From NCBI GenBank assembly GCA_965237675.1, contig OZ250150.1:896001-960000 (forward strand): a DNA stretch of 64,000 nt, read 5' to 3'. Shown in pieces: positions 23,604-42,227 of the stretch. A program made the position numbers and the translations under genes. This stretch comes from Candidatus Latescibacterota bacterium. GTDB lineage: Bacteria > Latescibacterota > UBA2968 > GCA-2709665. The notes beneath the pieces were generated by a model that made no database searches, was not told where the DNA came from, and saw nothing but the letters and a program-made list of their open reading frames with translations. Numbering within the stretch: the first letter of the stretch is position 1; each line of letters starts with the position of its first letter.

Positions 23604-23676
23604 TCGCCATTGGAAAAGTTGATCAGGATACTTAATCAGAGATTACCTTATTTCATACAGTGAAAGACTCGACCAT

Positions 23677-25539
23677 ATGATTCAGAATGAACGCCAAACG
23701 CGGCGAGTTCAGCTAGAGAGTTGGGAGGTGGGCGGGGAGCTATTAGACATCCTCTCTCGAGGCTTGTACTCCGATGCAAAAGACGCACTCAGGGAATACG
23801 TCCAAAACGGAGTCGATGCTGAAGCCGAACACACTCTCATTACGGTTGATGGCTCCCAAGCAGTGATAAGAGATGATGGCCATGGCATGGATGAAGAGGG
23901 CATCCGGATCGCTCGACGATTTGGAATGTCTGAGAAAAGCCCTAGAGAAATGGTCGGATACCGCGGCATCGGCATCTATTCGGCATTCGGCATTTGCGAG
24001 GAAATGACGATCACTAGCCGCCAGGCGGGTATGGATAACCTAGTAGGTTGGACCTTCCAGTTTGGTGAAATGCGCCGACTCCTCGAAGCAGATAAAGCTT
24101 CTGATGCCCGTCATGGTGTTGGCCTACCCGACCTCATGTATCAGTACAGTGAGTTGTTCGTTGAACCTTACCACGGCAATGCGGACGATCACTTTACTGT
24201 TGTGGAGATCGATGGATTGGGTGAAGAATACAGAGCCCAGCTAAACAACGCGGGAGAAGTCAATGATTATCTTCTGAATACGATTCCTGTAGCTTTCTCG
24301 GAGGATGGTTATGGCGACACGGTCAATGGATGGCTCGCAGATTACGTAGACCTCAATCCAGTTCGGATTACTCTTCGAATCGCCGACGAGAGCGAGATCA
24401 ACGTCCATCCGCCAGTCGCCAAAGGCGTGTACAGTCCCGAATCTGACTGGATAAGGGCACCGGACGATACGCCGTTGGCATTCGTGTGGTACGCCCTGTC
24501 CACTAATGGCAAACAGCTTCCCATGCATGAGGGTTCCGAGGTCAGTGGCTTCCTAATGAAGGTGAAAGGGTTCACATTAGGAAATCGACTTGCGCTCAAA
24601 GGGCTTTGGCCAGCCGTTGGTGGGGGAACTTTATACCATCACTATACAGGGGAGGTGCATATTCTGGCGACCGACCAAATCTATCCGAATGCTGCTCGGA
24701 ATGATTTGGAATCTAGTCCGGCTAGGCAACTGTTTGTGAAGCAGGCCGAAGATTTCTTTTATCCCCTCAGCCGGAAAGCTCGGGCTATGCAGGCGATGAC
24801 TAGGGGAGATCGCCTTCTTGAGGGAATTGATCATACAATCAAACAGTTAGCGGGACTAAAAGATGCGCCGAACGCAGACATATTCGAGGTATATAGAAGC
24901 AGCGAGAACTATCGGAAAGAACTAGAGAATGTGCATCAACAGATCGAGAGCCATAAGAGAAAGCCTCGCGGGCGGCCGCGAGTGCAATTCGATGAAGTAC
25001 AACAACGATTATTGGACAATGTCACCAAAAGGCTTCAAGGCGCTATCAGCCAATTAGGTGGAGTAGCTAGGGCCGCGCAAAAAAGTACGGAAAGACAAAG
25101 AAGAAGAGCTACTCAACCTCCTCCTCAAGAAAGACTACTTTACAGCGCACTTAGTGCTACATTGCGAGCAGCGGATAAGACCGACGATCCCCGGTTTAAG
25201 GAAGCGGCAGAGGCCTTGGTATCTTCGATTAATAGTAGATCAGTTCCGAGGACTATAGGGATTCTTGACGAACTTAAGGCTGCAGGAGTCGAACTCGGTA
25301 CCGAAGTGGAGTCGTCTAGGAGGGAGTTGAGGGCCTCATTAGGTTGGTCTCCTTTGGCACCAGTTTCACTGGGTGAGGCGTTGACGCAGCAAGGGGTTTC
25401 GTTAGAAGGCAAGCATGAGGAGAGCCTTGTAAAGGCAATCGACCGAGGTCTGGTGGTCGGGCTGGGTGGAAGAGGTGAGAGATATGAAACTGTGCTACGA
25501 GCTATAGTTGAAGCGATTGCCGAGGAAATGGGGAGCTAG
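23677..25539 (+). CDS. GHKL (MORC/Hsp90-like) ATPase 2 with helical C-terminus
   Basis: GLYSDAKDALREYVQNGVDA, DDGHGM, GYRGIGIYS, KVKGFTLG...YTGEVHI...PNAARND. Confidence 0.9.
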   Translation: MIQNERQTRRVQLESWEVGGELLDILSRGLYSDAKDALREYVQNGVDAEAEHTLITVDGSQAVIRDDGHGMDEEGIRIARRFGMSEKSPREMVGYRGIGIYSAFGICEEMTITSRQAGMDNLVGWTFQFGEMRRLLEADKASDARHGVGLPDLMYQYSELFVEPYHGNADDHFTVVEIDGLGEEYRAQLNNAGEVNDYLLNTIPVAFSEDGYGDTVNGWLADYVDLNPVRITLRIADESEINVHPPVAKGVYSPESDWIRAPDDTPLAFVWYALSTNGKQLPMHEGSEVSGFLMKVKGFTLGNRLALKGLWPAVGGGTLYHHYTGEVHILATDQIYPNAARNDLESSPARQLFVKQAEDFFYPLSRKARAMQAMTRGDRLLEGIDHTIKQLAGLKDAPNADIFEVYRSSENYRKELENVHQQIESHKRKPRGRPRVQFDEVQQRLLDNVTKRLQGAISQLGGVARAAQKSTERQRRRATQPPPQERLLYSALSATLRAADKTDDPRFKEAAEALVSSINSRSVPRTIGILDELKAAGVELGTEVESSRRELRASLGWSPLAPVSLGEALTQQGVSLEGKHEESLVKAIDRGLVVGLGGRGERYETVLRAIVEAIAEEMGS

Positions 25540-25547
25540 GGGAGGCA

Positions 25548-26564
25548 ATGGCAAGAAGGCGCGGTCGTCGACGAGGAAACTACTATTCCAGTGAAGAGAA
25601 GAACGTAGTTAGAGAAAAGTATGATTATCCGTTGGTCAAGGCAGCAGCTCGTAGAAAAAAGGGGGGAATCAGGTATTTTGGCATGCCGGGCGAGGAAGCC
25701 CTGGACTTACACAGCTGGGGCGGACTCTGCGAGTACGTAGCTGCTGTGGAATTCAGCGACGAAAGGTTTCAGTACGTAAAGCATGTACTGAGAACCCAGT
25801 TTGGCAGCATACGCCATCGAGCCCATTTAGGAGACGTCGACAAGGTTATCTTGAGAAACAAAAGTGGGAACCCACCTTCGGAATTTGTCTCAACCACTTT
25901 CCGATGCGGCGCTGGGTACATATGGGATTTTGACGTCATATACCTAGACTACTTTGGCAAATTCCTGCCTCATAAACACGGTGGCTCAGTTGTTCGAAAC
26001 AGAGCGAATGCGCTTAGACGCCTTTTCGCTACTGATCGCCAAGATGCATGGCAACCGTGGCTCTTAATGCTTACGGTTGAGTCCACGCTTTTCGGTTCTA
26101 ATGACAGGAAACAAATGCGACAGTTCTTGTCCGCTTCAATAGAAGAAGCGGATGCGGAAACGGAAGATGCTATTAACTTCCTGCTACATGATACGGCGTG
26201 TAAAGAGCAAGAGGCAACTAGGCTGGTTCACGGTACATTGAGCTATTTGATTGCTTTGGCCGCAAGCAATTCCGACGTCCGCGTATCGCCCAGACCGACC
26301 GTTCTGTACAGAGGGGCAAACGACACTCCGATGTTGCATTTTGCATATGAGGTGGCTCCTTCTGAAGTGTTGTCGGGTTCTCATCCGGCATTACCCTTGC
26401 TCCGGTCTCCTTTACTGCAGGTAAGGAACGATTATATGGAGCCGTGGTTCGAACTATTGCCTGCTCAACCGCCTGGGCAGACTGACTCCGTTATACGTAA
26501 AGCATTGGATTTTCTCGACGAGGATCAAGTCGAGCAAATTCTATGTGGGCGACGGACGACGTAA
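25548..26564 (+). CDS. Uncharacterised protein with predicted SAM-methyltransferase-like Rossmann fold
   Basis: RYFGMPGEEALD, VAAVE, GDVD, FDVIYLDYFG, LLMLT pattern; GGGGAGG RBS; follows ATPase 2 directly. Confidence 0.65.
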   Translation: MARRRGRRRGNYYSSEEKNVVREKYDYPLVKAAARRKKGGIRYFGMPGEEALDLHSWGGLCEYVAAVEFSDERFQYVKHVLRTQFGSIRHRAHLGDVDKVILRNKSGNPPSEFVSTTFRCGAGYIWDFDVIYLDYFGKFLPHKHGGSVVRNRANALRRLFATDRQDAWQPWLLMLTVESTLFGSNDRKQMRQFLSASIEEADAETEDAINFLLHDTACKEQEATRLVHGTLSYLIALAASNSDVRVSPRPTVLYRGANDTPMLHFAYEVAPSEVLSGSHPALPLLRSPLLQVRNDYMEPWFELLPAQPPGQTDSVIRKALDFLDEDQVEQILCGRRTT

Positions 26565-26789
26565 AGCCCCCAATTGGACAAGAACGAGAACCTTCGGGCT
26601 CAGGTTCCGGCCGGCGGTGTTATTCTGGAGCCGACGTTGCCGGGCTACCCACCAAAGACCCGAATGCGCTAGGTCCACCCGGTAGCGGATGGAGTTATCG
26701 AGAGAGGCCCTCTGCTGCGCTGGCAGAGAGCCTTTTCTTGAGAGCAATGTCGGCGTCATTGACCCGGCTTCGTCCTTTATGTAGGATGT

Positions 26790-26865
26790 AGAAACGTGGT
26801 CATTGCGTGCGTCGCTTGCGCTGAGCTTGTCGAAATGCCCGCGTTTCGCTACCCTTCGATACCCA
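26790..26865. repeat. REP-like repeat (same family as 14095 and 63520)
   Basis: GAAACGTGGTCATTGC...GCTGAGCTTGTCGAAATGCCCGCGTTTCGCTACCCTTCGATACCC. Confidence 0.75.
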
Positions 26866-26871
26866 TCAACT

Positions 26872-27642
26872 TCACGGCATCCAGATATTCCACTTGCCAT
26901 GCTTTTCCCAGATGCGGCAGGTGTCACAGGTGCACATCCACCGGAGTGCGAAACGCGGCTTGTTGCCTGTATTCAGAGATCCGGCGTGTATCAGCAGATA
27001 GTAAAAAAACAGTACGTCTCCCCGTGACGGCCTCAACTCAACCGGCGCTCCCAGTTCGAACTTTTGCTGCGGGTTCTTGAAATCCGACAGCATTCGATAC
27101 CGGTCGGGGTCCTGCACTGCCGCCTCGCCGAGCTTCCGATGGGACCCCGGCCAGACCGCGGTACCGCCACCCTGCGCGACACCCGAATCGAGATAGGTCA
27201 GTGATGAGACGCGGAATGATCCTGGAAAAACGCTGAAAGGTCGATGAACACCATCGGCATGCCCGCTGTGATGATTCCATTTTCCGGAGACCGGAAATAC
27301 ACATCGTGTCCACACTGCCTCGGGCTGTGGTTTCTGACAATGAAATGCCTCTTCATTTTCCCTTGCCAATTGGCTCTGCGCTTCGTAAAACGTGGGAGTA
27401 CAACAAGCCAGTAACGCAGGGTCCTGGAGCCCGAAATGTTCAATCACCCCCTGGCTGGCAACTGTTGTCACCTCGTCTGTATCGTCCGGTAGAGGAGACC
27501 ACGAAGCCGGATCGTCCCGATCCATACCCAGGACAGACCACATCGCCTCCTCTGCGCCGGCAATTGTCTCTTCCGGAATTAAGCCCGACACCAGCACATA
27601 CCCGTCCCGGTCATATTGCGCCATTTGTTCTTGTGAAAGCAT
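26872..27642 (-). CDS. Phytanoyl-CoA dioxygenase (PhyH) family protein
   Basis: MLSQEQ..YDRDGY, HAD, GGTAVWPGSH, GDVLFF, HAGSLN...RFAL. Confidence 0.88.
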   Translation of the reverse strand: MLSQEQMAQYDRDGYVLVSGLIPEETIAGAEEAMWSVLGMDRDDPASWSPLPDDTDEVTTVASQGVIEHFGLQDPALLACCTPTFYEAQSQLARENEEAFHCQKPQPEAVWTRCVFPVSGKWNHHSGHADGVHRPFSVFPGSFRVSSLTYLDSGVAQGGGTAVWPGSHRKLGEAAVQDPDRYRMLSDFKNPQQKFELGAPVELRPSRGDVLFFYYLLIHAGSLNTGNKPRFALRWMCTCDTCRIWEKHGKWNIWMP

Positions 27643-27938
27643 GGATTCCTCCCGGGTAGATCGAATTTTGTACAGGAAAAATAAGGCGCCGATCATTCAC
27701 TCGAAGAAAAGCGTTAAAAAATCCAATAGGACACCCCTCCCGTCACGAAACCTGCCGAAAAACCGAAAAATTCTCTCGTCAATTTCTGTTATACGCCCAT
27801 TTCAAATGGTATGGTTTTCTGAAAATTTTATATTTTTCGATGTGGAAAAATCGTAAATGGTGAATTAAGAATGGAGCGATCGGGAGAGGAGTGAGGAAAA
27901 GTATTGTGGGATTTAGTTTGATTTTTGGCAGATTCTTG

Positions 27939-28238
27939 CTATTTGAAAGTTGCTACCTGATTAAGATTTTTGCTGGAAATTGAACCTTCCTCATAGCAAG
28001 AATACCAATCGGTAGCGTTTGGGATATTCACCATGTCTGCTTGTGCATTCTTCGCGTTGCCCTCTAATTCCCAGTAAACAATGTCGATATAACCTCCATC
28101 ACTATTCCTGTGAATCTCCCACTTTTTGAAACCTGACTGTCTGCTCATCCAATTTTCCAGAACATCACTTGCAACATTCAGTAGATGTTCCTCCGAGATA
28201 TTCTCTGCCAACTCGTAACTGATTATGTCTTTGTACAT
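27939..28238 (-). CDS. Small ABM-like (dimeric alpha-beta barrel) protein, AT-rich
   Basis: WMSRQSGF, YIDIVYWE; ATG 28238 after AAGGGG. Confidence 0.6.
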   Translation of the reverse strand: MYKDIISYELAENISEEHLLNVASDVLENWMSRQSGFKKWEIHRNSDGGYIDIVYWELEGNAKNAQADMVNIPNATDWYSCYEEGSISSKNLNQVATFK

Positions 28239-28505
28239 TTTGTTGCCCCTTAAATTGATGAATTGCGTACAAGTCGTGGGTGTGGAACGAACAAACGAGC
28301 GCTTCCCTCCAGTTCGCAACAGAAGACAAAGGATTCTATCATAGTTACTATGTAAAACAGACAGTCTCCGAGGGTTGTGCCAAAAATGAAGTCTACCAAA
28401 TTACAAACAACCCTTTTGGATGAGACGGTCTTGAAAAAGGATAACATTGAATCGTTGTCAGGTCAAACCCTTATTTTTGCAGGTGTTATGTATAGTAGAA
28501 TTACG

Positions 28506-28601
28506 CGCCGATGTCGCTAACATGCATTTCGCCGAAAACGTATGCAAGGGTCCGGCAGGTTCACCGATGAATCGCTTGTCGTCGCACAGAATCGTCCGGG
28601 A
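28506..28601 (+). repeat. Repeat family B, copy 1
   Basis: GCCGATGTCGCTAACATGCATTTCGCCGAAAACGTATGCAAGGGTCCGGC...ATGAATCGCTTGTCGTCGCACAGAATCG. Confidence 0.85.
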
Positions 28602-28623
28602 CAGAACACGAGGAACATCCGCT

Positions 28624-29370
28624 ATGGACAGTGAATTGTTGCAACGGGGGTTCGACCCCCAGCCGCTGACGCCCGCCCAGTGCAGCGCGCTGGACACCAA
28701 CGGCTTCCTCATTCTGGATGCCGTCATCGCGCCCGACTGGCTGGCCGGGCTGCGCCGTGCTTTTGACGAGATCTTCGCCCGCGAAGGCGACAAAGCCGGC
28801 GCTGAGGTTGCCCGGATGGATGGCGTGCGCCGACTCGCCGACCTGGTCAACAAGGGGACGGTCTTCGACGCCGTGTACCTGCAGCCGACGCTTCTGTCGG
28901 CGGTCTATCACGTCCTGCAGCGGCCGTTCAAGCTCCACTCGCTCAACGGACACGATCCGCTGCCCGGCAGCGGATTACAGGGCCTGCACAAGGACTGGGG
29001 GCAGCCCACCGTACCCGGCGGACCGTACCACGTCGTCAACTCGATGTGGATGCTCGACGACTTCACCCGGGTTAACGGCGCGACCCGCTGCGTCCCCGCG
29101 AGCCACCGCAAACCCGGCAGGGTTGCCGATGCCCTGGCCGATCACCCCGATCAAGTCCAGCTGACAGGCCGCGCCGGCTCGGTCGCCGTCTTCAACGGCA
29201 GCCTCTTGCACAGCTCGTATCGCAACCTCAGCGACGCCCCCCGCCGCACCCTGCACTGCGCCTTTATCGCCCGCGAACACCCGCAGCAGACGAACCAGCG
29301 CGAGTACTTGCGGCCCGCAACCGCCCGACGACTCTCGCCGCTGACGCGCTACATCCTCGACGTCGAGTGA
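28624..29370 (+). CDS. Phytanoyl-CoA dioxygenase (PhyH) family protein
   Basis: LHKD, WMLDDFTRVNGATRCVPASH, AGSVAVFNGSLLH; ATG 28624 (the longer ORF reads through repeat B). Confidence 0.9.
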   Translation: MDSELLQRGFDPQPLTPAQCSALDTNGFLILDAVIAPDWLAGLRRAFDEIFAREGDKAGAEVARMDGVRRLADLVNKGTVFDAVYLQPTLLSAVYHVLQRPFKLHSLNGHDPLPGSGLQGLHKDWGQPTVPGGPYHVVNSMWMLDDFTRVNGATRCVPASHRKPGRVADALADHPDQVQLTGRAGSVAVFNGSLLHSSYRNLSDAPRRTLHCAFIAREHPQQTNQREYLRPATARRLSPLTRYILDVE

Positions 29371-29437
29371 ACCTCGACGCATAACTCAAACTGCTTTTTC
29401 TTCAGATGATCCATCGCGTACGCATAGGATAATATCG

Positions 29438-29525
29438 CACCGATATCGGTAATATGCAATTCGCGGAAAACGTACGCAAGGGTCCGGCACGGTCACTGAT
29501 GAGTCGCCTGTCGCCGCACAGACTC
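29438..29525 (+). repeat. Repeat family B, copy 2
   Basis: CCGATATCGGTAATATGCAATTCGCGGAAAACGTACGCAAGGGTCCGGC. Confidence 0.85.
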
Positions 29526-29580
29526 GCTTCGCCATCGTGTTCGACGATCGCGTCCATTTTCATTGATCCACGAACGCCAC

Positions 29581-30100
29581 TTACACGATATTCTTGACAC
29601 CCCCGGCCAGAGGCCGTTCTTGAAACTGCCTCAGATTCGCTGCCGACGCCTTAATGAACCGCTTGGAAACACTTGAGGACGATAAGCCAAACGCCTCCAG
29701 TACCGCCTCGGCGCAACTTTCATAGGAACGCGTGGCAATGCCCCTGACCACGCGCAGCAGCAAGCCTTCATCCATGTGTCTCGGGCGCTGCAAGCGGTGA
29801 TACACCTCCAGAGGAACTTCCTCATTGGCTTCCACATCACGCACCCTGGGCACCGTAATGGGCACTTTTTGATCCGACAGATACACCGATCCCGGTTGAG
29901 CGCCCCACCGACGATTCGAGGTCTTCCCCGCTTTACGACTGTATTTCTTGCCCGTCAACCCCGCGACCTCATTCTGCAAGACGTCCTCCACAGCGCCCGG
30001 ACCAGGCGGGATCAGCGCCTGGATCAATGCCACCCGGACGTCAACATCCTCCAGCGCTGCTCCCAGGACCGGGTCGGACGTCAGACCGCCATCCGGTGAC
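29581..30100 (-). mobile_element. IS256-family transposase fragment
   Basis: RVALIQALIP, RRWGAQPGSVYL, VPRVRD, RGIATRSYE, GLSSSSVSKRF; truncated. Confidence 0.75.
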
Positions 30101-30146
30101 CAGCGCCGTTTGGCCGTCGAGCTTAAAAAAATCCAAAATCCCCATG

Positions 30147-30521
30147 CTATTCCCCTTGGTTCTGTCCTTGAAGAACGGTCAGTGCATCCCACGTCGCCGG
30201 AAATCCGCCGAAAGCGCTCATCTGCAACATGACCTCCTCAATCTCCGTCCTTGTGGATCCACAACCAAGGGCTCGGTCGATGTGAACAGCAAGTTGTTCC
30301 GGCCTGCCGAGAACCGTCAAGGCCGCGATCGTGCACAGCAGACGGGTCTTGATGTCCAGCCCGTCCCGTCCGTACAGGTCATACATCACGTGCTCCATCA
30401 CGAGTCGCTCGAACTCGGGATGAAGTGTGCGCATCTTCTTGGCAGCGGCCTCTGCAGCGGCCTCTCCGACCATCGTCGAGAGAACTCTGCGCCCTGCTTC
30501 GTAGCGTTCACTTTCAGTCAT
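30147..30521 (-). CDS. Carboxymuconolactone decarboxylase family protein
   Basis: YGRDGLDIKTRLLCTIAAL, QLAVHIDRAL, EIEEVMLQ..FGGFP. Confidence 0.9.
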   Translation of the reverse strand: MTESERYEAGRRVLSTMVGEAAAEAAAKKMRTLHPEFERLVMEHVMYDLYGRDGLDIKTRLLCTIAALTVLGRPEQLAVHIDRALGCGSTRTEIEEVMLQMSAFGGFPATWDALTVLQGQNQGE

Positions 30522-30544
30522 ACTTCCTCCCCCTTGGGTGTCGA

Positions 30545-30725
30545 TTAAAATTTCGACCGTGCTGTCGCCGCAGTAGCAGGCAGCCTACATCGCAGGTGCC
30601 AGTCTGCGTCTTCAAGCGCCTCGTAGACCACGCCGCCCCCCACCTGCTCGGGCATGGGGATGCCGAGCAAGTAGCACAGCGTCGGCGCGACATCCACCGC
30701 CCGCACCTGCCGACTGAGCGCCAGC
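30545..30725 (-). pseudogene. C-terminal fragment of an alkaline-phosphatase-superfamily protein
   Basis: VDVAPTLCYLLGIPMPEQVGG; N-terminal part missing. Confidence 0.6.
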
Positions 30726-30781
30726 AGCCCCTCAGCTCGATTCAGCCACGGGTTCAGCCTGGATGTACCCCGATAAATCAT

Positions 30782-33899: not shown

Positions 33900-33911
33900 C
33901 ACAGCGGATCA

Positions 33912-35456
33912 ATGCCCATGTTCTCGGCTGGCCCTCGCTTATGGCCTCTCTATTTGCTCGGAGGCGTCGTCGTCCTGGCGCTCCTGTTGATCTGGTTGCC
34001 CGAAGCCCCCCATCGCCAGCAACAGGTCATGCGCACCATGGCCACCTTCATTCTCGCGATTTTCTTTGCTTTGCTCTGGTTGCTCTTCGCGTCGCGGCTG
34101 GCCTGGGGACAGCGCCTGCGCTATTTCGGCGGTATCGTCCTCGTCATTGCGCTTGGGATCGGGTTTTTTCGCGTTAAGGGTATGAGCGGCGACTTCGCAC
34201 CGATCCTCGAATGGCGTTGGAGTACTGAGGACGAAGCCACCGCTGTCGAAGGAGGGGACGCCACCGCGCTCGACGCCCGCGATTGGCCGCAATTTCTCGG
34301 CCCCGAGCGCAACAACCGCCTCCGCGGCGTCCACCTCGAGCGCGACTGGGCCAAGCACCCGCCGCGCGAAATCTGGCGTCGCCCCGTCGGCGCAGCTTGG
34401 TCCTCCTTTGCCATTGTCGGCGGCCGGGCCGTAACTCAGGAGCAACACGGCCCCGAGGAGCAGGTCGTCTGCTACGACTTGGCAACGGGCCGCAAGCTCT
34501 GGCACCACGCCGACTCGACTCGCTACGAGACCGCCATTGCCGGCATCGGCCCGCGCGCTACGCCCACTATCGCTGGAGACCGGGTTTTCACGCTGGGCGC
34601 TACTGGCATCCTCAACTGCCTGGATCTGGCCAGCGGGGCGCTGATTTGGTCGCGGGACATCCTCGCCGACAATCAGGCTAAGGCCCATATGTGGGGCATT
34701 AGCTGTTCGCCGTTGGTTCTCGACACCTTGGTCGTGGTCAGTGCCGGAGGCCCGGATGAGCGCTCGCTAGTGGCCTATCACCGCCAAAACGGCGCGTTTG
34801 TCTGGGGCGGGGGCACAGACAAGGCCGGCTTCAGTTCACCGCGTCTGGTCACGTTGGCTGGACGCGAGCAGATCCTGATCTTCAACAACCACAGCGTTGT
34901 CGCGCACGATCCGCAGAGCGGAGCTCCCCTCTGGCGTCAGCCTTGGGATCGGGCCGAATGCATTGCCAATCCCCTGCCCTTGCCCGGGGACCGGGTTCTG
35001 GTCTCCACCGGCTACGGCATTGGAGCCAAGCTGTATCAAGTGAATGCCGCGCCCAACGGCGAGTTGACGACCGATATCGTCTGGAAAAGCCCCCGGATCA
35101 AGGCCAAATTTGCCAACATGGTCTATCGCGATGGTTTTGTCTATGGCCTCGACGATGGGGTGCTGGTCTGCCTCGACCCGCAAGACGGTAAGCGTCGCTG
35201 GAAGCGCGGGCGCTACGGCCACGGCCAGCTCATTCTGATAGACGATATCCTTCTGATAATGAGCGAATCGGGTGACGTGTTACTGGTCGAGGCTCGCCCC
35301 GACCGCCACGTAGAACTAGCGCGCATGACGGCCTTCGACGGCAAAACCTGGAATCCCCCGGCCTTTGCCACACCCTATCTGTTAGTGCGCACGGACAGCG
35401 AGGCCGCCTGCTACGAGCTGTCGCTTGCAAACGGTGCTCAGGCGCAGCGCTTCTAA
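33912..35456 (+). CDS. Membrane-anchored PQQ-like beta-propeller protein
   Basis: Three TM segments, DWPQFLGP, GPRATP, repeated DxxxG..W motifs, GKTWNPP. Confidence 0.88.
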   Translation: MPMFSAGPRLWPLYLLGGVVVLALLLIWLPEAPHRQQQVMRTMATFILAIFFALLWLLFASRLAWGQRLRYFGGIVLVIALGIGFFRVKGMSGDFAPILEWRWSTEDEATAVEGGDATALDARDWPQFLGPERNNRLRGVHLERDWAKHPPREIWRRPVGAAWSSFAIVGGRAVTQEQHGPEEQVVCYDLATGRKLWHHADSTRYETAIAGIGPRATPTIAGDRVFTLGATGILNCLDLASGALIWSRDILADNQAKAHMWGISCSPLVLDTLVVVSAGGPDERSLVAYHRQNGAFVWGGGTDKAGFSSPRLVTLAGREQILIFNNHSVVAHDPQSGAPLWRQPWDRAECIANPLPLPGDRVLVSTGYGIGAKLYQVNAAPNGELTTDIVWKSPRIKAKFANMVYRDGFVYGLDDGVLVCLDPQDGKRRWKRGRYGHGQLILIDDILLIMSESGDVLLVEARPDRHVELARMTAFDGKTWNPPAFATPYLLVRTDSEAACYELSLANGAQAQRF

Positions 35457-35515
35457 CAGGGCCATGGATTTTCCCGCTACCCCGCCAATCGCGACTCTAA
35501 TAACCGGGCACTTGT

Positions 35516-35810
35516 ATGGAGGAAAGTCATGGCAGACTATTCGCACATTCAAAAGCCGGACTTGGGCTACCGCCGGGTGCTTGCGAGGTGCTCGACTACG
35601 AGCCCTTCATGGTTATTAACCGGCACCTGATTGCCACCGACGAGTTGACGATCCACCGCTCGGCTGCCATCATCCGCCGGACCGGTTCGGCTCCCGTAGG
35701 GTGGCACACCGATTGGCGCAGCTATTCGACCGAAATCAAGCACTCGGGCGACGTCCTCAATCGCGGACTGTGGCCGTCGGGCAAGTGGTTCTACCTGACC
35801 GGGTCGCGGC
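35516..35810 (+). pseudogene. PhyH-family fragment
   Basis: GWHTDW, KWFYLTG; lacks both termini. Confidence 0.5.
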
Positions 35811-35832
35811 GACGAAATTACTCATTCGGACC

Positions 35833-36558
35833 TCACTGCGTCAGCGAATTCAAGTGTTCGAGAATTTCTTCCTGTTCGGCTAAATCAAACTGATTCGAGC
35901 CGATGTACATATATCTGATAGTGCCGAGTCTATCAATGATAAACGTCGCCGGGCGGGCAATGCTGTTGCTGAGATTGTGATCCGCCAGGCCGATCCAGTT
36001 GTGTAAAGGATAGCCGAGATTGTCGATGATGAACGTCGCGGGGCGGACGATGTTGTAAGCGAGGTTGTGCATCGCCAGGCCGAACCCGTGATATACCCCA
36101 TAACTCTTGATGATGCTCCAGTCTTCGTCCGCCAAAAGAGGATAGGTGATGCCACTGCGCTCGGCGTATTCGCGCAGTTCGCAAAGCTGCTGACCTGCGG
36201 CGATAGCAATAGATGTCGCGTTACGTTCGGCGTACGCGTCTATATGTTCTTGCACAGTCGCCAACTGACGACGGCTTCTCCTTCACCAGGTCCCCCGAAA
36301 AAACGTCAGCACGACGTGTTCTTTTTCCCGATGCGATGCCAGCGACACGTATCGTTGCTGTTGTGAGGGGAGGGTAAATAAGGGGGCCGTATCGTCCACG
36401 CTGAGGACCCGTAGCTTGTACCGCGCAGTGAACCGCCGGCGCTTCGCCTTCTCTGACACTTCCGGGTCAGGGCGGGGCGCCTCGGTAGCAGTCCCTTCGC
36501 TCCGCTCCGGAACTGCTACCGACACCTGCTCCTGTCGGCCGTTGTCCATACTCATCAT
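35833..36558 (-). CDS. AhpC/TSA-like selenoprotein (TGA 36283-36285) with N-terminus fused to an IS3 orfA fragment
   Basis: APLFTL...VVLTFFRGTW-TGA-RRSRRQL continues in frame to YPLLAD and RPATFIID; SECIS-like hairpin 10 nt after TGA. Confidence 0.75.
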
Positions 36559-36635
36559 CTCTTGCTCTCCTCTCCGCCCTCAAGACTACACTAAACTCGG
36601 ATGGGGAGTTGTCTCACTCTATATTGGCACGTAGG
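36405..36635 (-). mobile_element. IS3-family 5' remnant
   Basis: PDPEVSEKAKRRRFTARYKLRVL resembles IS3 orfA; end-like ACTCTATATTGGCACGTAGG also occurs near 50925. Confidence 0.6.
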
Positions 36636-36715
36636 GATATAATATTTACATTTGACAAACGATCTCCAAAAGGCTATATCATAAGTAGGAAGTTAGCCAA
36701 CAAAAGGGATCGGAA

Positions 36716-37336
36716 ATGGAACAGAAAAAGACGACATACAAGCCGATTAAGGATATGAGTATTTTCCAATTTAGCAAGCGGTTTCCGAATGAAGCTGTTG
36801 CCATATCTTATGTCGAAAACCTGCGATGGAAAGATGGGATTTACTGTCCGCATTGTGGGGTTATCGGCAATGTTCAGAAAACGAAAAACGGCAAGCCGCA
36901 ACCTTATCGCTGTCGAGAATGCCGCAAGCATTTTTCAGTAAGGACCGGAACGATCATGGCGCAGTCCAACCTGCGATTGACAACGTTTCTCAATGCTATC
37001 TATCTTATCATCACACATCGCAAGGGTGTGCCGAGCACTATGCTTGCCAGGGAGTTGGGTGTTACGCAAAAGACAGCATGGCATCTGGCCCACAGAATTC
37101 GTAAAGCGTTGGAGATGAAGGGCGGTTTGTTCTCCGGACCGGTAGAGGTTGACGAAACCTATATTGGCGGCAAGGAACGGAACAAACATTCTTCCAAGAA
37201 GTTGCATGCTGGCCGTGGTACTGTTGGCAAGACTGCGGTTGTGGCAGTGCGAGATCGTGAAGATGGTAAGGTTAAAGCCAGGCTGGTACAGGGAACGGAT
37301 AAAAGGAAGTGGACCCCATCGTCAAGACCAATTTGA
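36716..37336 (+). mobile_element. IS1595-family transposase, 3'-truncated
   Basis: Zn ribbon CPHC...CRECRKHFSVRTGT, GVTQKTAW, VEVDETYIGG. Confidence 0.9.
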
Positions 37337-37375
37337 GGCGAATTTAAGGTGGATATGTTTTTGGTTTTCGATAGG

Positions 37376-37477
37376 GTTCTTCTTTGCGGCCCGTGCAACC
37401 GGCTGAAGAGCAATGTGTATACGCTTTCAGGGTTAAGGCGGGAGAACAAGAAGCGGAGATATTTGTACAACGGATAA
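37376..37477 (+). pseudogene. C-terminal HNH-like fragment
   Basis: VLLCGPCNRLKSNVYTLSGLRRENKK-stop (CxxCN). Confidence 0.55.
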
Positions 37478-37489
37478 AGGGGGTACAAG

Positions 37490-37696
37490 ATGGGTGCTGT
37501 TACCGTTGTGATGGGTTTGATTAATCGAGTAGTAAAAGGGGAGCGTCCTGAGGTTGTCGTTCGAGAGGCGGCGGAAGATCCCTTTCTGGCCCGATCTCTT
37601 CAGATTGATGAGGATATTCGTACCGGGCGGAACCGTCCGTTATCACCGGAGGAACAGCGCCGGTTTATTGAACGAGTAAGAAGGGGCGGGAAGTGA
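37490..37696 (+). CDS. Small protein, putative antitoxin
   Basis: 68 aa; overlaps the downstream RelE-like gene (GTGA); EDIRTGR..PL motif. Confidence 0.45.
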   Translation: MGAVTVVMGLINRVVKGERPEVVVREAAEDPFLARSLQIDEDIRTGRNRPLSPEEQRRFIERVRRGGK

Positions 37697-38055
37697 ATGA
37701 GGGGCGCGAGAGGCAACGGACCAGAAAAGCAGAGACGCCCGTTGAACAACCCAAACCGGAAGCACCACCGGTAGAGCAAGAGGTTATCATCTATCGGCGT
37801 GTTTCACGGTTTATAGAGAGGAAATTGCAACCAAAAGTACAGACACGTGCGCTTGCGGCGATTGATTCTCTCAAAGTCCCCACAAATATACGGGGGTCGG
37901 TAAAGATAGAGGGACGACCTGCCAACGATCCCATGTTCAGGATTGATAAAGATGCTTATAGGATCTTCTACAAGCGTCTTGAGGGCAAGGTTCATGTGGT
38001 AGACATGGAGAATCGGCAAGGTGCTTATGACAAGGGTCGCACGAGGAAACGCTGA
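37693..38055 (+). CDS. RelE/ParE-like toxin
   Basis: Basic; KIEG...FRIDKDAYRIFY...VVDMENRQGAY resembles the RelE RxRxGxYRIxY...HRxxxY pattern. Confidence 0.65.
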   Translation: MNEGRERQRTRKAETPVEQPKPEAPPVEQEVIIYRRVSRFIERKLQPKVQTRALAAIDSLKVPTNIRGSVKIEGRPANDPMFRIDKDAYRIFYKRLEGKVHVVDMENRQGAYDKGRTRKR

Positions 38056-38110
38056 TCTCCACAAGATGGGGACAGTGATATTAGATTCCATAGACGTTGC
38101 GGGGAAGGCA

Positions 38111-38305
38111 ATGAAAAAGACAGGCAAGCGCAGGGCGGCAACCAAAGGAAGAATTAAGGTTGCAAAGTCTTCGTACAGTCCCACGAAGGCGGAGACGGAA
38201 GAGTTGGTAAAGATTCCAAAGAAGTTGGAAGGTGCGTCTTTTGACGCTTTTGTGAGTGTTGCGATAAGGCCAGTTGAAGTTAAGGAGTCGGACAAGCCGA
38301 AATAA
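38111..38305 (+). CDS. Small basic hypothetical protein (probable IS1595 passenger)
   Basis: ATG 38111 after GGGGAAGG; YSPTKAETEE motif. Confidence 0.4.
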   Translation: MKKTGKRRAATKGRIKVAKSSYSPTKAETEELVKIPKKLEGASFDAFVSVAIRPVEVKESDKPK

Positions 38306-38363
38306 TTAGATTTTCCTCGTGTGCAAACTTCACTTCCCGTCGGCTAACATTGTATATAGTTCC

Positions 38364-38572
38364 CATTGTAAAGGATTTCGGCGCGTTTCCGGCGTCAACC
38401 CGATACTCCCGCCACACGTCTCCCCGGCAGTCCCGCTCCTGCGGAGCGCAGATGCCCGGACCTGTCCCATTTCCCGCCAGATTCCCCTTGCCTGTGAAGG
38501 AGAGAACGTCGTATTTTCTTCCTATACGCCAACAATACACCAGGCTTGCAACGGCTCCGCAGGGTTGCGCCA
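38364..38572 (+). repeat. Repeat family A (MITE-like), copy left of the methylase island
   Basis: Near-identical direct repeat of 45015-45224. Confidence 0.92.
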
Positions 38573-38699
38573 TATCCAGAACATTTCAACGGAGGCACGA
38601 GGTGATCCAGAGAGGTCTTTCGGAAATCCTTTCTGTTCAGACCCTGTTCCCTCCATTTGATTCAATTGCCTAAGTCCAACGACATCAGGTGTAGGTGTT

Positions 38700-39857
38700 A
38701 TGGGTAATCGTGAAGCTCACTATATCGTAGACCTGTTCAGTGGGGCAGGAGGCCTTAGTCTTGGCTGTGCCCGCGCAGGGTTTGTTGTTAGTGGCGCTAT
38801 TGATAACGATCCAAAGGCTAACGAAACTCACAAGCGTAACTTCCCAAACGCGGTACATGTAAACACAGATATTGCCGAACTTACCGGTACTGACCTAAAA
38901 CATGAATTGCATCTTAACGGCGAAACCATTATGGGGATTGTGGGCGGCCCTCCGTGTCAAGGCTTTAGCGCTATCGGTAGAAGGGACAAAAACGATATGC
39001 GCAATATGTCGTTCGTCCATTTCTTCCGCATAGTTTCTGAAGTCCAACCCAAGTTTTTCCTTGTCGAGAACGTGCCAGGAATCATGCATGACATGCATGA
39101 CGAAATCAGAGAGCAGGCATTCTCTCTCGTCGACGACAACTATGATGTTTTGTCTGAAATGTACTTGTCGGCAAATGAATACGGGGCTCCGACTAATCGG
39201 AAGCGAGTCTTTTTCTTTGGATATCGCACCGACGAGATGGACCCTCTGACGATTGACAGCTTTGATCCTCCTTTGGACGCAGAAACCGTTCATGTGAAGG
39301 ATGCCCTGTGTGGATTGCCTACGAGAATAGACCCCGAGTGGCAAAAGGAAGAACAGAGCTGGCAGGTTGTTGGCATCTCCCCGAACGGCAGCTTCGGACA
39401 AAGACTCCACGGACACATCCCCTCCGGTGTCGGCGACCAGGACGCTATTCGCCGGCTATTGAGTAAGAATGAAGTCTCCGGTTTCTTGGGCACCGCACAT
39501 ACAGCAGAAGTAGCTGACAGATACGCCAAGACCGAGTGCGGCCGATACGACTCCATCTCTAAGTCGTATCGACTCGATCCTGACGGCTTTTGCCGGACAT
39601 TGCGTGCGGGTACTGGTCCCGCCCAAGGTAGCTTCCAAGCGGTAAGGCCCATACACCCGACTGAAGCCCGAGTAATAACTCCACGTGAAGCCGCGAGACT
39701 TCAGGGCTTTCCTGATTGGTTTCAATTTTCCCCTACGAAATGGCATAGCTTCCGGCAAATCGGCAACAGCGTTAGTCCAATCCTCGCAGAACGAATCCTT
39801 AGAGTGGTAGCCAAGTCGCTGGGTATCCCCAATGCGACGGAGGACAAATGTGAATAA
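38700..39857 (+). CDS. DNA (cytosine-5)-methyltransferase
   Basis: DLFSGAGG, GGPPCQGFS, ENVPG, RKRVF, REAARLQGFP, QIGNSV. Confidence 0.96.
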   Translation: MGNREAHYIVDLFSGAGGLSLGCARAGFVVSGAIDNDPKANETHKRNFPNAVHVNTDIAELTGTDLKHELHLNGETIMGIVGGPPCQGFSAIGRRDKNDMRNMSFVHFFRIVSEVQPKFFLVENVPGIMHDMHDEIREQAFSLVDDNYDVLSEMYLSANEYGAPTNRKRVFFFGYRTDEMDPLTIDSFDPPLDAETVHVKDALCGLPTRIDPEWQKEEQSWQVVGISPNGSFGQRLHGHIPSGVGDQDAIRRLLSKNEVSGFLGTAHTAEVADRYAKTECGRYDSISKSYRLDPDGFCRTLRAGTGPAQGSFQAVRPIHPTEARVITPREAARLQGFPDWFQFSPTKWHSFRQIGNSVSPILAERILRVVAKSLGIPNATEDKCE

Positions 39858-41259
39858 GTCACAGCAAGGCAAGTACGAGCCGGTCGATGCTTCCCCGGTC
39901 AAGTCGTTCTTCGTTTCCATGCTCACACGGGATATTCAACTGGAAGATGCCATACTCGACTTGCTCGACAATTGCGTTGACGGCATCTTGCGCTCCAAGG
40001 GAACTAACGGTCCGCGGCCGTACGAGGGCTTCAAAGCTGAAATCGAGTTCGGCGCCGAATCGTTTTCGATTCATGACAACTGCGGTGGCATTCCTTGGGA
40101 ACTGCACGAATACGCATTCAGAATGGGACCAGATCCTGATAGACCACGCGATGAATCCGGAACCGTCGGCGTATACGGAATCGGGATGAAACGGGCGATA
40201 TTCAAGTTGGGCAAACAGTGCCTCATATCCACTCGCAATGACGAGGACCAGTACGAGGTCGAGATCACTCCAGACTGGATAACAGACGAAGCTGTGTGGG
40301 TTATCCCTGTTCGTGAGGCCGATATCTCTGCAGATTACGACGGGACTACCATTATGGTCGGCGAGTTGTATCCCGGTATAGCTAAGACCTTTGGTGAGGG
40401 AGCGAAGTCCTTCAAAAGTGATCTGAAACGAATGATTGCGACACACTATGCATACATCATCGATAAGGGGTTTGAGGTCACGGTAAATGGTGATTCGGTC
40501 AAGCCCGGATCTACGAAAATCGTACACGATGAACGAGACACTGCATGTGCAGATGCGATTAGACCATTCGTCTTCAAAAGCGCCATCGATGGCGTCAGCG
40601 TCTACCTAGCTGTGGGCTTCACTCGTCCAATTCCTTCCGAGAACGAGCTTAGAGAGGAACAGGAGGCCGCGAGGTATTCTTCCGTAGATGCAGGATGGAC
40701 CATTCTTTGTAATGACAGGGCCGTGCTCTACTGTGACCGCAGTGAATTAACCGGCTGGGGGGAAGCTGGTGTTCCACGTTACCACACTCAATTCATCGCC
40801 ATATCGGGCATAGTCGACTTTCGATCCGACGACCCCTCGAAGCTCCCTACAACAACGACCAAGCGAGGAATCGACGCATCGTCACCTCTATATCTTCAGG
40901 TCAAGAATAAAATGCGTGAAGGTATGAGGATATTCACAGACTATACCAACAAATGGAAGGGCCGAGCAGAAGAATCTAAGTATCAAATCGAGCATGGTAC
41001 TCCTCTTCCCCTTGAGCAGCTAAAGACAAGTACCGAGCGACTAACCTTCACGAACACTCGCATTCTGCCTCTTGGCGAACAATATAAGCCTCAACTCCCT
41101 TTGCCACGTAGGCCTGAACGGACGACGCGCCGGATCTCGTTTGTCAAAGAAATTTCTAAGATCAAGGCGGTAGCCGACTACTTGGGGGATCCCGACATGC
41201 AGACCTCGGAAGTTGGCGAAGAATGTTTCGACGCCATACATGCTGAGGCTAGGGAATGA
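39850..41259 (+). CDS. GHKL/MORC-type ATPase
   Basis: MLTRDIQLEDAILDLLDNCVDG, DNCGGI, GVYGIGMKRA, LPTTTTKRG; GTG 39850. Confidence 0.9.
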   Translation: MNKSQQGKYEPVDASPVKSFFVSMLTRDIQLEDAILDLLDNCVDGILRSKGTNGPRPYEGFKAEIEFGAESFSIHDNCGGIPWELHEYAFRMGPDPDRPRDESGTVGVYGIGMKRAIFKLGKQCLISTRNDEDQYEVEITPDWITDEAVWVIPVREADISADYDGTTIMVGELYPGIAKTFGEGAKSFKSDLKRMIATHYAYIIDKGFEVTVNGDSVKPGSTKIVHDERDTACADAIRPFVFKSAIDGVSVYLAVGFTRPIPSENELREEQEAARYSSVDAGWTILCNDRAVLYCDRSELTGWGEAGVPRYHTQFIAISGIVDFRSDDPSKLPTTTTKRGIDASSPLYLQVKNKMREGMRIFTDYTNKWKGRAEESKYQIEHGTPLPLEQLKTSTERLTFTNTRILPLGEQYKPQLPLPRRPERTTRRISFVKEISKIKAVADYLGDPDMQTSEVGEECFDAIHAEARE

Positions 41260-42227
41260 CTACTCCGGCGTATCATCTTAGACCTAACAAGGCAGCTGAT
41301 CGCTTTGCCTTACTTGAAGCGATCAGACGCCTTCCGTTGCTAGGCGACGGAGGTCTGGACAAATACACGTACTTCAGCATGGGGGGAGCATACCTAGAAG
41401 ATTTTCGCCTGTTGTACGAGTTTTGTCCCGAGATGGGTATGGTGTCGATTGAGAGCGATGGGGAAGTTTACAGGCGCCAGAAGTTTAACCTTCCTTTCCG
41501 GACACTGAAACTCATAGAAGAAGATGTGTCCTCATTCATTAGTCGTTACGACCCTGGCGACAACAAGAGCGTCTTCTGGTTGGACTATACAAGGCTGGAA
41601 TATGGATGCTTTCTAGATTTTTCAGCTTTGTTAGAGACAGTACCCCCAAACAGTATGATTAAGATTACATTGCGGTCCGATCCTCGGATATACTGGGATC
41701 AAAATCCTGCTGGACCGAACAATAAGCAGGCCGAGAGATTTAAGAGGCAATTTGGGGGTATCATGCCCGACTCGTCTGCCAACCCTCCCAGGGCACCAGA
41801 AGATCTAGCTTATCTTCTTCAAGAGATGCTCCAGATTGCTTCAGAGAAAGTGCTGCCGCCTGGCGCTACAGGCAGATCGTTTGTACCGGTGTCTTCGTTC
41901 TATTACTCCGATGGAACGTGGATGTTCACCTTGACGGGCCTTGTTTGCGATGTCGACAAGACACAAAGCGTGAGACGGGCATTCAGGAATTGGGAGTTCG
42001 CAAATCTGGATTGGAGTAAGCCAATCAGGATTTCTGTGCCGGTGCTTAGCACTAAGGAACGGCTGCATCTCCAGAGGATTTTGCCTACTAAGACAGCGGC
42101 TGGAAGAAGGCTCCGTAAACGCCTGGGTTATCTAATCGAGGACGATGTCCTAAAAACTGAGGATGCGCTCGAACAGTACGCGGCATTTCATCGGTATTCC
42201 CCGTATTTTGTAAGGGGAGTGCCGTAG
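41256..42227 (+). CDS. Methyltransferase-fold protein associated with the MORC/RM locus
   Basis: YHLRPNKAADR, YFSMGG...EDF, SIE, FWLDY, FYYSDG..M; ATGA overlap. Confidence 0.75.
   Translation: MTTPAYHLRPNKAADRFALLEAIRRLPLLGDGGLDKYTYFSMGGAYLEDFRLLYEFCPEMGMVSIESDGEVYRRQKFNLPFRTLKLIEEDVSSFISRYDPGDNKSVFWLDYTRLEYGCFLDFSALLETVPPNSMIKITLRSDPRIYWDQNPAGPNNKQAERFKRQFGGIMPDSSANPPRAPEDLAYLLQEMLQIASEKVLPPGATGRSFVPVSSFYYSDGTWMFTLTGLVCDVDKTQSVRRAFRNWEFANLDWSKPIRISVPVLSTKERLHLQRILPTKTAAGRRLRKRLGYLIEDDVLKTEDALEQYAAFHRYSPYFVRGVP

Follow-up and report, generated by a model that had tools for sequence, protein, structure and literature searches.

Gene content of the two loci

Two loci in a 64,000-nucleotide stretch of the genome of a Candidatus Latescibacterota bacterium (contig OZ250150.1, positions 896,001 to 960,000 of the forward strand; hereafter the window) each encode a GHKL-type ATPase that is directly followed by a protein with a methyltransferase fold. 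The present analysis, which covers the open reading frames (ORFs) and a Pfam scan of the entire window, concerns the relationship of these two gene pairs to one another and to the S-adenosylmethionine (SAM)-using enzymes encoded upstream of them. Locus A, between 18.4 and 26.6 kb, comprises five co-directional plus-strand genes, which encode the ATPase GHKL1, a protein of 451 residues (p451), a radical SAM enzyme, the ATPase GHKL2 and its partner protein, partner A (Table 1). At locus B, a Dcm-type C5 cytosine DNA methyltransferase, which is also matched by the PADLOC model MTase_II (2.8e-96) and, over its cut-off, by TIGR00675, precedes the ATPase GHKL3 and partner B. The original prediction for this DNA had placed a C5 DNA methylase upstream of pair B and a GHKL ATPase directly before a methyltransferase-fold protein at both loci, and both statements are borne out, the latter by the HATPase_c_3 domain of the two ATPases and by the class-I fold of both AlphaFold2 (AF2) models. 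It had overlooked GHKL1, and of the limits that it gave, those of pair A (23677-26564) agree with the genes, while position 39850, given as the start of pair B, lies inside the ORF of GHKL3.

At the junction of pair A, the TAG stop codon of GHKL2 is separated from the ATG of partner A by an 8-nt spacer containing GGAGG, and GHKL3 and partner B overlap by ATGA. Both loci are low-GC patches (0.50-0.56 versus about 0.58-0.63), and the Pfam scan finds transposase genes near locus B and also on the downstream side of locus A.

Only one of the two proteins that had been described as a radical SAM pair upstream of pair A is an intact enzyme. The product of 21677-23290 scores 61.3 bits against Pfam Radical_SAM (cut-off 29.5) and carries the motif CPFKCSYC at residue 266; all its matches to NCBIfam are far under cut-off, the best being to the PhpK family (1.9e-14). 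The preceding p451, with 7 Cys overall, has no CxxxCxxC motif and no Pfam match up to E 10, and when used as query it matches the adjoining radical SAM ORF in genome G000 over residues 18-171 (4.2e-8) and 313-428 (1.5e-9). Because p451 is thus paralogous to its neighbor and lacks CxxxCxxC, the supposed pair consists of one intact enzyme and one degenerate copy.

Table 1. Genes of the two loci and their closest accessories in the window.
Feature	Position	Strand	Length (aa)	Matches and assignment
GHKL1	18414-20405	+	663	Pfam HATPase_c_3 2.6e-15; first gene of the trio GHKL1/p451/radical SAM
p451	20398-21753	+	451	Degenerate paralogue of the adjoining radical SAM enzyme, without the Fe-S motif
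B12-binding-type radical SAM enzyme	21677-23290	+	537	Pfam Radical_SAM 1.6e-16, B12-binding 4.2e-4; candidate DNA-marking enzyme, locus A
GHKL2	23677-25539	+	620	HATPase_c_3 2.1e-14; ATPase of the A-type pair
Partner A	25548-26564	+	338	Class-I methyltransferase fold, PF28273 / PP_RS20740-type
Dcm-type C5 cytosine DNA methyltransferase	38700-39857	+		DNA_methylase 5.5e-59; marking enzyme, locus B
GHKL3	39832-41259	+	475	HATPase_c_3 9.5e-8; ATPase of the B-type pair
Partner B	41256-42227	+	323	Class-I methyltransferase fold, PF20553 Methyltransf_35, Pfam 2.7e-62
Vsr very-short-patch repair endonuclease	42240-42683	+		Pfam Vsr 3.1e-30; TIGR00632 over cut-off; frequent locus B accessory
HNH_2 endonuclease	42744-43640	+		Pfam HNH_2 5.8e-12; occasional locus B accessory

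Fold and relationship of the partner proteins

Partner B is a member of Pfam family PF20553, which it matches with 211.3 bits against a cut-off of 27. Partner A is not; it has no Pfam match up to E 10, PF20553 and TRM included, in a copy of Pfam that does not hold the PF28273 model, and it shares with most of its 73 relatives a precomputed PF28273 annotation. Its score against the NCBIfam family NF047698 (PP_RS20740 family) is 36.5 bits, versus a cut-off of 200; PP_RS20740 itself is a hypothetical protein that one paper has linked to furfural tolerance. The AF2 models of both partners are confident (predicted local distance difference test (pLDDT) scores of 88.5 for partner A and 88.0 for partner B), and both display the class-I order of an N-terminal helix, strands beta1-beta5 with their helices, an inserted helical segment and a hairpin of beta6 and beta7.

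In Foldseek searches of the PDB, the top chain for both proteins is that of Trm1 (3axs), with E-values of 2.3e-7 (partner A) and 2.0e-7 (partner B), each partner having at least 500 matches at E <= 0.001, of which those listed are mostly methyltransferases. VIA alignment to the same entry gives Z 15.8 and a root-mean-square deviation (rmsd) of 3.6 over 237 aligned residues for partner A, and Z 15.6 and an rmsd of 3.3 over 216 residues for partner B, and the lower-ranked neighbors overlap as well (other Trm1 entries, RsmD/YhhF, PH1915 and Tt1595). The two folds, in other words, are not unrelated. Sequence searches of the PDB with both family profiles, by comparison, yield chance-level hits only (E 0.33 and 0.13) and match no solved methylase.

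The parallel motifs that had drawn attention to the two partners are real: they are conserved within each family and occupy equivalent positions of the class-I fold, namely beta1 with the Gly loop, the end of beta2, beta4 and beta5. Among 195 sequences of the A family, the SAM-pocket residues Gly 45, Gly 48 and Glu 68 are found in 187, 161 and 169 (plus 12 with Asp), respectively, and in the B family (n = 205) the counts for Gly 43, Gly 44 and Glu 66 are 205, 201 and 201. The Asp on beta4 is invariant in both, as D134 (195/195) and D110 (205/205).

To compare the families as profiles, these were enlarged with the results of a search of 1.84 billion representatives (365 proteins at E 0.001) and with further loci, and the hhalign probability between them rose from 57.7% to 65.8% and then to 91.5% as the profiles grew. 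The best alignment (91.5%, E 8.7e-7) covers 132 columns, starting at the N-terminal helix and ending at beta5. In a first set of controls, a reversed profile and 10 shuffles gave scores of 14.3-23.2 with probabilities of at most 2.0%, and a second set of 20 column shuffles scored 10.0-20.4, with at most 0.9%. The signature common to both families begins in the N-terminal helix with a Lys and an Arg, followed by Tyr-x-Gly on beta1 and the Gly loop, continues with an Asp that starts the following helix and a Glu at the end of beta2, and closes with Leu-Asp-Tyr on beta4, a Thr on beta5 and a Tyr on beta6. This is more than the generic methylase motifs, which do not extend to the N-terminal Lys and Arg or to the tyrosines of beta1 and beta6. 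Also, when partner A is placed in the ESM Atlas, clusters of PF28273 (0.96) are followed next by clusters of PF20553 (0.94). On the grounds of the enlarged profiles, the same fold, the shared signature and the ESM Atlas ranking, partners A and B are remote homologues, the link being visible only with enlarged profiles; this connection between PF28273 and PF20553 is new.

Two ATPase lineages, each with its own partner

HATPase_c_3 is the only domain that Pfam finds in GHKL1, GHKL2 and GHKL3. The Bergerat motifs of GHKL3 (Asn, Asp-x-Gly-x-Gly and Gly-x-x-Gly-x-Gly) are invariant in 36 sequences. BLASTP aligns GHKL2 with GHKL3 over the N-terminal ATP-binding region only (E 0.006), and the hhalign probability between their families is 7.1%, as against 98.8% (351 columns) between the GHKL2 family and the GHKL530 family of related loci and 95.0% (100 columns) between the GHKL2 family and GHKL1. 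GHKL2 and GHKL3 are related in a generic sense only, as members of separate GHKL lineages.

A locus of a relative, L102 (compared loci are numbered with L, genomes with G), carries both types. Its 575-residue ATPase belongs to the GHKL3 family (hhalign 95.9%) and precedes a PF20553-like protein, and its 534-residue ATPase belongs to the GHKL2 family (99.5%) and precedes a PF28273-type protein, so that an ATPase of either lineage stays with a partner of the lineage belonging to it. Such co-inheritance is also evident across 10 loci, where identity to the window for GHKL2 and for partner A is correlated with a Spearman coefficient of 0.97. Because the ATPase lineages differ, each with its own partner family, the two loci represent one architecture in two old lineages and not the single cassette that had been proposed, of which the common architecture and the remote homology of the partners remain.

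Genomic context of the B-type pair

A metagenome scan yielded 143 relatives, of which the best 80 loci were retained, and 11 loci with an identical partner gene were then dropped. GHKL3 lies immediately upstream of the PF20553 gene in every one of the 59 loci where there is room of 300 nt or more. Immediately upstream of GHKL3 stands Dcm in 29 of the 30 loci that could be judged, namely those in which the GHKL3 match is full-length, beginning no later than residue ten, and room of 400 nt or more is left; in the exception, L030, Dcm is found downstream. A Vsr gene follows the partner gene within 300 nt in 27 of the 55 loci that have room for it. Four families recur in the 35 B-type loci that are 6 kb or longer, namely the partner in 34, GHKL3 in 32, Dcm in 29 and Vsr in 19, and the next family is present in 5. 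The HNH_2 protein of the window, which matches the NCBIfam PT-DNA restriction endonuclease at 5.7e-15, under cut-off, has homologues outside the window only in L038/L039 and L163 among the loci compared.

Within the phylum of the window, PF20553 is found in 12 of 168 genomes, and in the 11 B-type loci of this phylum GHKL3 is upstream throughout (11/11) and Dcm adjacent in nine. Viral contigs yielded one locus with the B-family profile. In L160, a minus-strand gene at 10347-12104 stands in the place of Dcm upstream of GHKL3 and PF20553; it encodes a 585-residue protein without a PDB sequence match, and its DGQHR motif is one that we take to be DndB/ParB-like.

Genomic context of the A-type pair

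A full GHKL2 gene lies immediately upstream of the partner A family gene in 10 of 11 genome loci, and in the eleventh (L013) GHKL2 is reduced to a 66-residue remnant adjoining an IS1595 transposase. That locus (L013:65-7197), disrupted by an insertion sequence (IS), stands beside a type I restriction-modification (R-M) system with an inserted ThsB-like TIR gene, in what is a typical defense island.

Searched with tblastn, the trio of the window (GHKL1, p451 and the radical SAM enzyme) is found in L003 only among these 11 loci. The possibility that the radical SAM link is confined to L003, a near-identical relative, was considered and rejected, as the 540-residue neighbor found elsewhere appears to be a divergent radical SAM protein. 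This p540-type protein, encoded beside the A-type pair in Chloroflexota loci (for example, L008:589-2211), has a CxxxCxxC motif; its family matches the radical SAM enzyme of the window with an hhalign probability of 93.5% (E 2.3e-7), and five of five sequences match Pfam Radical_SAM at about 1e-3 and 17.6-20.1 bits (cut-off 29.5). It is confirmed in L004, L006, L007, L008, L011 and L012; L005 and L009 have ORFs of p540-like size at the same place, a likeness of size and position alone, and in L010 a weak radical SAM/B12 gene adjoins the pair. In Chloroflexota the module is frequently extended by a second ATPase, GHKL530, together with a ParB_N-like protein, an SNF2 helicase of the ZorD/DpdE-like kind and a PDC-M38A-like protein. 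The SNF2 module occurs in L004, L006, L008, L011 and L141, and a ResIII helicase in L146. The neighborhoods of p540-type genes in a further set of loci (L182-L192) are varied: a GHKL530-type ATPase is encoded immediately upstream in L186 and L189, and a second CxxxCxxC protein is encoded nearby in L190.

In the phylum of the window, a broad A profile matches 7 of 168 genomes, strongly in six (G000, G047, G053, G057, G122 and G141), and these are exactly the six that carry the p451 marker at 80% identity or more, with two different subtypes of the pair. The trio of G141, G047 and G122 is 86-96% identical to that of the window, and between G000 and G141/G122 it is 90-96% identical across taxonomic families; the GHKL1 copies of L102-L104 are 86-92% identical. 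In G141, G047 and G122 the trio faces another A-type pair, with an ATPase of 534-536 residues and a partner of 283-286 residues, which are about 26-29% identical to GHKL2 and partner A and clearly of the same families. The contig of L104 ends within the ATPase.

A different candidate radical SAM enzyme precedes the pair in two of these loci. L103:12435-13856 (473 residues) and L102:15620-17017 (465 residues) encode 88% identical orthologues with the motif CPVECPYC, and their nearest clusters in the ESM Atlas carry the spore photoproduct lyase (SPL) family PF20903 (0.95-0.96). The assignment as SPL-like is based on this motif and on the language-model features of the ESM Atlas; neither protein has a Pfam SPL match, Radical_SAM is matched by one of the two (E 0.023) and not by the L103 protein, and a phmmer search of the PDB with the candidate finds no SPL. 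In L103 the gene is followed by an A-type pair and in L102 by a B-type pair, so the same upstream gene is served by either type of pair. On the minus strand of L102 (9989-17017), the order is the SPL-like gene (465 residues), a GHKL3-type ATPase (575 residues) and a PF20553-like protein (278 residues), followed by a 155-residue remnant of a second SPL-like copy, which matches SPL-like residues 322-470, a GHKL2-type ATPase (534 residues) and a PF28273-type protein (283 residues). The arrangement is suggestive of an insertion or recombination event within the SPL-like gene.

For the class of G168, 401 genomes were compared; 8 of them are matched by the broad A profile, and at all eight loci a HATPase_c_3 gene immediately precedes the partner gene (L140 being on the contig of L007). 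Their neighboring enzymes are diverse. L139 has a p451-like protein and a B12 radical SAM enzyme (1.4e-17) beside the pair, and L141 and L144 have radical SAM enzymes of 395 residues, which score 23.1-25.3 bits against the Radical_SAM cut-off of 29.5. Fusions of HhH-GPD to a C5 methylase adjoin A-type pairs at L142:4344-6167 (607 residues) and L146:13130-14869 (579 residues), both in one genome, and in these the fused glycosylase may stand in for Vsr. An N6_N4_Mtase gene is found beside the pair in L145 (27.5 bits, cut-off 26.7) and, more weakly and under cut-off, in L143.

Sequences flanking the locus A island

The five-gene island (18414-26564) is compact, and all its junctions are tight other than a 386-nt gap (23291-23676) between the radical SAM gene and GHKL2; in L139 the position of this gap is taken by a 150-residue protein with weak BrnA_antitoxin and KOW matches. 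A consensus scan for promoters and terminators over 17900-27000 returned no more sites than were found in shuffled sequence. Just downstream of partner A are two genes for PhyH-type Fe/2-oxoglutarate dioxygenases, at 26872-27696 on the minus strand and 28447-29370 on the plus strand. Both are kept in L003 and L105 with 80-87% identity, and the PhyH-like matches in L102 are weak (23-26% identity) and several kb from the pairs. Upstream of the island, 14378-16912 and 17213-18091 encode proteins of 844 and 292 residues that belong to no family. They are 80-93% identical in L003, L103 and L105, are absent from L102, where a TnpB-like gene is found, and are probably part of the flank and not of the system.

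Discussion

The closest known kind of system is the MORC/paraMORC restriction-modification-like operon. MORC and paraMORC ATPases, of the GHKL+S5 type, have been described from genome comparison since 2008 in mobile R-M-type operons with a cytosine methylase, Vsr, an SNF2-type helicase and HNH, and an ATP-driven handling of DNA tied to an epigenetic mark was proposed as their role (Iyer, Abhiman and Aravind, 2008, PMC2292703). The N-terminal GHKL ATPase and the neighborhood of DNA methylase, Vsr, SNF2 and HNH are both found here. However, the passages of that paper on these operons mention no methyltransferase-fold partner gene, and the term 'radical SAM' occurs nowhere in it. Similar gene orders are seen in the clusters of C5 methylase, HATPase_c_3-HEF_HK, Response_reg_2 and Vsr (Bellieny-Rabelo, 2021, PMC8011034) and in Ambrosia, for which phage protection that requires every gene has been reported (bioRxiv 10.1101/2025.09.30.679545). 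As outlined in these two sources, the order of DNA methylase, GHKL-type ATPase, small partner and Vsr and/or HNH_2 is the same, but their partner is a receiver-domain protein and their ATPase combines HEF_HK with a C-terminal HATPase_c, whereas the partners described here have a methyltransferase fold and no receiver-domain match, and the ATPases have HATPase_c_3 only. In addition, no known defense-system model of PADLOC is matched by partner A, partner B, p451 or GHKL3.

Other likenesses are limited to single components. The N-terminus of the BbrUII/HgiDII restriction enzymes (NF050001) matches the N-terminal GHKL domains of GHKL1 (4.4e-16) and GHKL2 (1.9e-13), but with 58.5 and 49.8 bits, respectively, against a cut-off of 550, and over about 100 N-terminal residues, the rest being unmatched. 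Trm1 (tRNA m2,2G26) and the N2-guanine RNA methyltransferases RsmD/YhhF (3axs, 2dul, 2fpo, 2ift), which are the best structural neighbors of both partner models, share with them a class-I fold whose beta4 carries an Asp-aromatic pair; motif IV of Trm1 is Asp-Pro-Phe-Gly. The partners differ in having no sequence-level match to these enzymes and no match to Pfam TRM, and in a context that is DNA-centered and mobile rather than housekeeping. For the radical SAM enzymes, a precedent is gp53 of phage M6, a radical SAM isomerase of SPL-like type that takes part in the hypermodification of thymidine (Lee et al., 2021, PMC8989533); by that paper's account, the radical SAM enzymes known by 2021 to act on DNA were spore photoproduct lyase and one phage enzyme only. 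Like the candidate of L102 and L103, gp53 is SPL-like, and it acts on DNA after replication, but as described there it belongs to a phage pathway on bases derived from 5-hydroxymethyldeoxyuridine, whereas the present enzymes are cellular and of three kinds, with no hydroxymethyluracil machinery seen nearby. A literature search, which did not extend to supplements, found no paper that deals with PF20553/Methyltransf_35 or with PF28273, and none whose title or abstract describes such an operon with a radical SAM enzyme.

On balance, the somewhat probable explanation is that the ATPase-partner pair is a constant module of mobile R-M-like systems, to which a variable SAM-using enzyme is joined. 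Each locus would encode a MORC/paraMORC-like GHKL ATPase and, translationally coupled to it, a Trm1/RsmD-like class-I methyltransferase-fold protein, in two ancient lineages, the A-type (GHKL2 with a PF28273-type partner) and the B-type (GHKL3 with a PF20553 partner). The module would be the constant half of these systems, and the variable half would be the SAM-using enzyme encoded just upstream or alongside, be it a C5 methylase (with Vsr or an HhH-GPD fusion), an N6/N4 methylase or a radical SAM enzyme of any of three kinds. The upstream enzyme is proposed to mark host DNA and, this being assumed, the radical SAM enzymes would act on DNA as well. The pair would load on DNA, where the SAM pocket and the beta4 Asp-aromatic site of the partner may probe, or further methylate, the target base, and an ATP-driven closing of the GHKL dimer would pass the result to variable effectors or act on the DNA directly; candidate effectors are HNH, the SNF2 helicase with ParB-like proteins and the ResIII helicase.

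The idea of a reusable module with interchangeable enzymes, put forward in the original prediction, is supported by the gene censuses: Dcm directly precedes the B-type pair in 29 of 30 judged loci, the A-type pair is found with several kinds of radical SAM enzyme and with C5 and N6/N4 methylases, and the SPL-like gene precedes either type, so that an association with modification enzymes is evident for both. The neighbors across loci are DNA-centered (Vsr, HNH, SNF2 of the ZorD/DpdE-like kind, ParB_N-like proteins, ResIII helicase, type I R-M), and the loci lie in low-GC patches with IS genes. The position shared with DNA methylases beside the pair supports, and does not prove, a function of the radical SAM enzymes as DNA-marking enzymes. 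Since DNA methylases and radical SAM enzymes share this operon position, it is a testable prediction that the latter modify DNA; the biochemistry, the defense role and the part of effector or sensor once suggested for the pair are likewise what gene position points to.

Several observations weigh against the proposal of a common module with a restriction-like output. The motif-bearing BLASTP alignment of partners A and B is not significant (E 4.5), and hhalign with 26-sequence profiles of both gives 1%. The 106 distant representatives of the A family that were compared with PF20553, namely those of 150 listed matches that are near full-length and numbered from P0211 upward, include none that matches it at E <= 0.01, and, as weaker evidence, no fused ATPase-partner or intermediate forms were found among proteins of 637-2000 residues. 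Motif IV is Leu-Asp-Tyr on beta4 in both families, without the Pro-Pro of the canonical (D/N/S)PP(Y/F/W). The Dcm family is missing from 6 of the 35 long B-type loci, and there is no Dcm match at all in L048 and L076, which are outside the 29/30 count, or in L160 and L169 of the phylum. Since the next family after the trio and Vsr reaches only 5 of these long loci, the B-type trio has neither a nuclease nor a helicase as a conserved companion, and a restriction-type output is without an assigned effector; a cognate restriction endonuclease conserved with the methylase, as expected of type II R-M, is not found in these loci. In the reverse test, a p540-type profile matched 15 of the 401 genomes, of which 4 have a PF28273-type gene and 11 do not, and around the p540-type gene of the 11 loci without a pair (L182-L192) a GHKL neighbor is present in 3 and none is recognized by local profiles in 8, which is a caveat to the association with radical SAM enzymes. 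Also, kin among the genomes are not independent in the genome counts.

It is unlikely that the partner is itself a working Trm1/RsmD-like N-methylase of DNA or RNA, with the GHKL protein as its loader or regulator, in which case the pair would be a second writer, not a reader or effector, and the system would produce a double mark. Conservation in both families is highest at the SAM-pocket positions and at the beta4 Asp-aromatic pair, the nearest solved structures (Trm1, RsmD/YhhF) are active base methylases, and the B-type trio has no conserved nuclease, all of which suits such a writer. It would, however, leave without reason the retention of a dedicated ATPase together with a second, always different, modifying enzyme, and both the non-canonical motif IV and the failure of either family to match a solved methylase by sequence argue against it. 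An improbable alternative is that the pair guards the SAM supply, the partner sensing SAM or S-adenosylhomocysteine (for example, depletion by phage SAM-degrading enzymes) and the ATPase triggering a response. The use of SAM, and not DNA marking, would then be the feature common to the upstream enzymes, and DNA need not be the substrate of the radical SAM enzymes. All upstream enzymes found are SAM-dependent (C5 and N6/N4 methylases, radical SAM), the partner retains a SAM-type pocket, and the missing nuclease is again in accord. Against this stand the DNA-centered neighbors, HhH-GPD fusions included, the resemblance of one upstream candidate to the DNA-acting SPL family in language-model features, and the description of GHKL proteins of such a kind in R-M operons, as set out in the account of those operons (PMC2292703).

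Slightly less probable still is a role of the modules in DNA repair rather than in conflict, with a MutL-like ATPase and its partner assisting lesion-specific enzymes; the lesions would, at the same low probability, be deaminated 5-methylcytosine (Vsr/HhH-GPD) and photoproducts (SPL-like lyase). Vsr beside about half of the B-type loci (27/55), the fusions of HhH-GPD with a C5 methylase at L142 and L146, and the SPL-like candidate upstream of the pair in L102 and L103 are consistent with repair, as is the fact that MutL stimulates Vsr in Escherichia coli. The distribution is patchy, though (7/168, 12/168 and 8/401 genomes), the trio is 90-96% identical across taxonomic families (G000 versus G141/G122), and flanks with IS and recombinase genes as well as defense-gene neighbors point to mobile accessory systems; B12-type radical SAM enzymes are not known to act in repair. 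Finally, it is very improbable that the two cassettes are unrelated, with GHKL and Rossmann-fold proteins brought together twice because both are common in defense islands, and with generic motifs. This would account for the insignificant BLASTP and small-profile comparisons, for the merely generic relationship of the GHKL subunits (7.1%) and for the lack of PF20553 matches among the 106 distant A-family members. It is contradicted by the enlarged profiles (91.5%, as against at most 0.9% for shuffles), by the non-generic positions of the signature (N-terminal Lys and Arg, the Tyr of beta1 and that of beta6), by the same best PDB neighbor with near-equal Z, by the fact that the families match each other and yet no solved methylase by sequence, and by the one orthologous upstream gene that precedes either type of pair.

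With the module of constant and variable halves retained as the preferred explanation, the present analysis defines a constant two-protein core, an ATPase and a Trm1-like partner drawn from the two uncharacterized families PF28273 and PF20553, that occurs together with SAM-using enzymes of five kinds or more. What is new here is the existence of two co-travelling ATPase-partner lineages and the finding that radical SAM enzymes and C5 or N6/N4 methylases are interchangeable beside them. It is possible, if still rather doubtful, that three unrelated kinds of cellular radical SAM enzyme, namely the B12 type with its degenerate paralogue, the p540 type and an SPL-like type, serve as the 'M' half of such systems, placing a radical-chemistry mark on chromosomal DNA, for example by methylation of an unactivated carbon, which the GHKL ATPase and the Trm1-like partner would then read or complete. 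If true, this would constitute a new class of self/non-self discrimination based on DNA modification.

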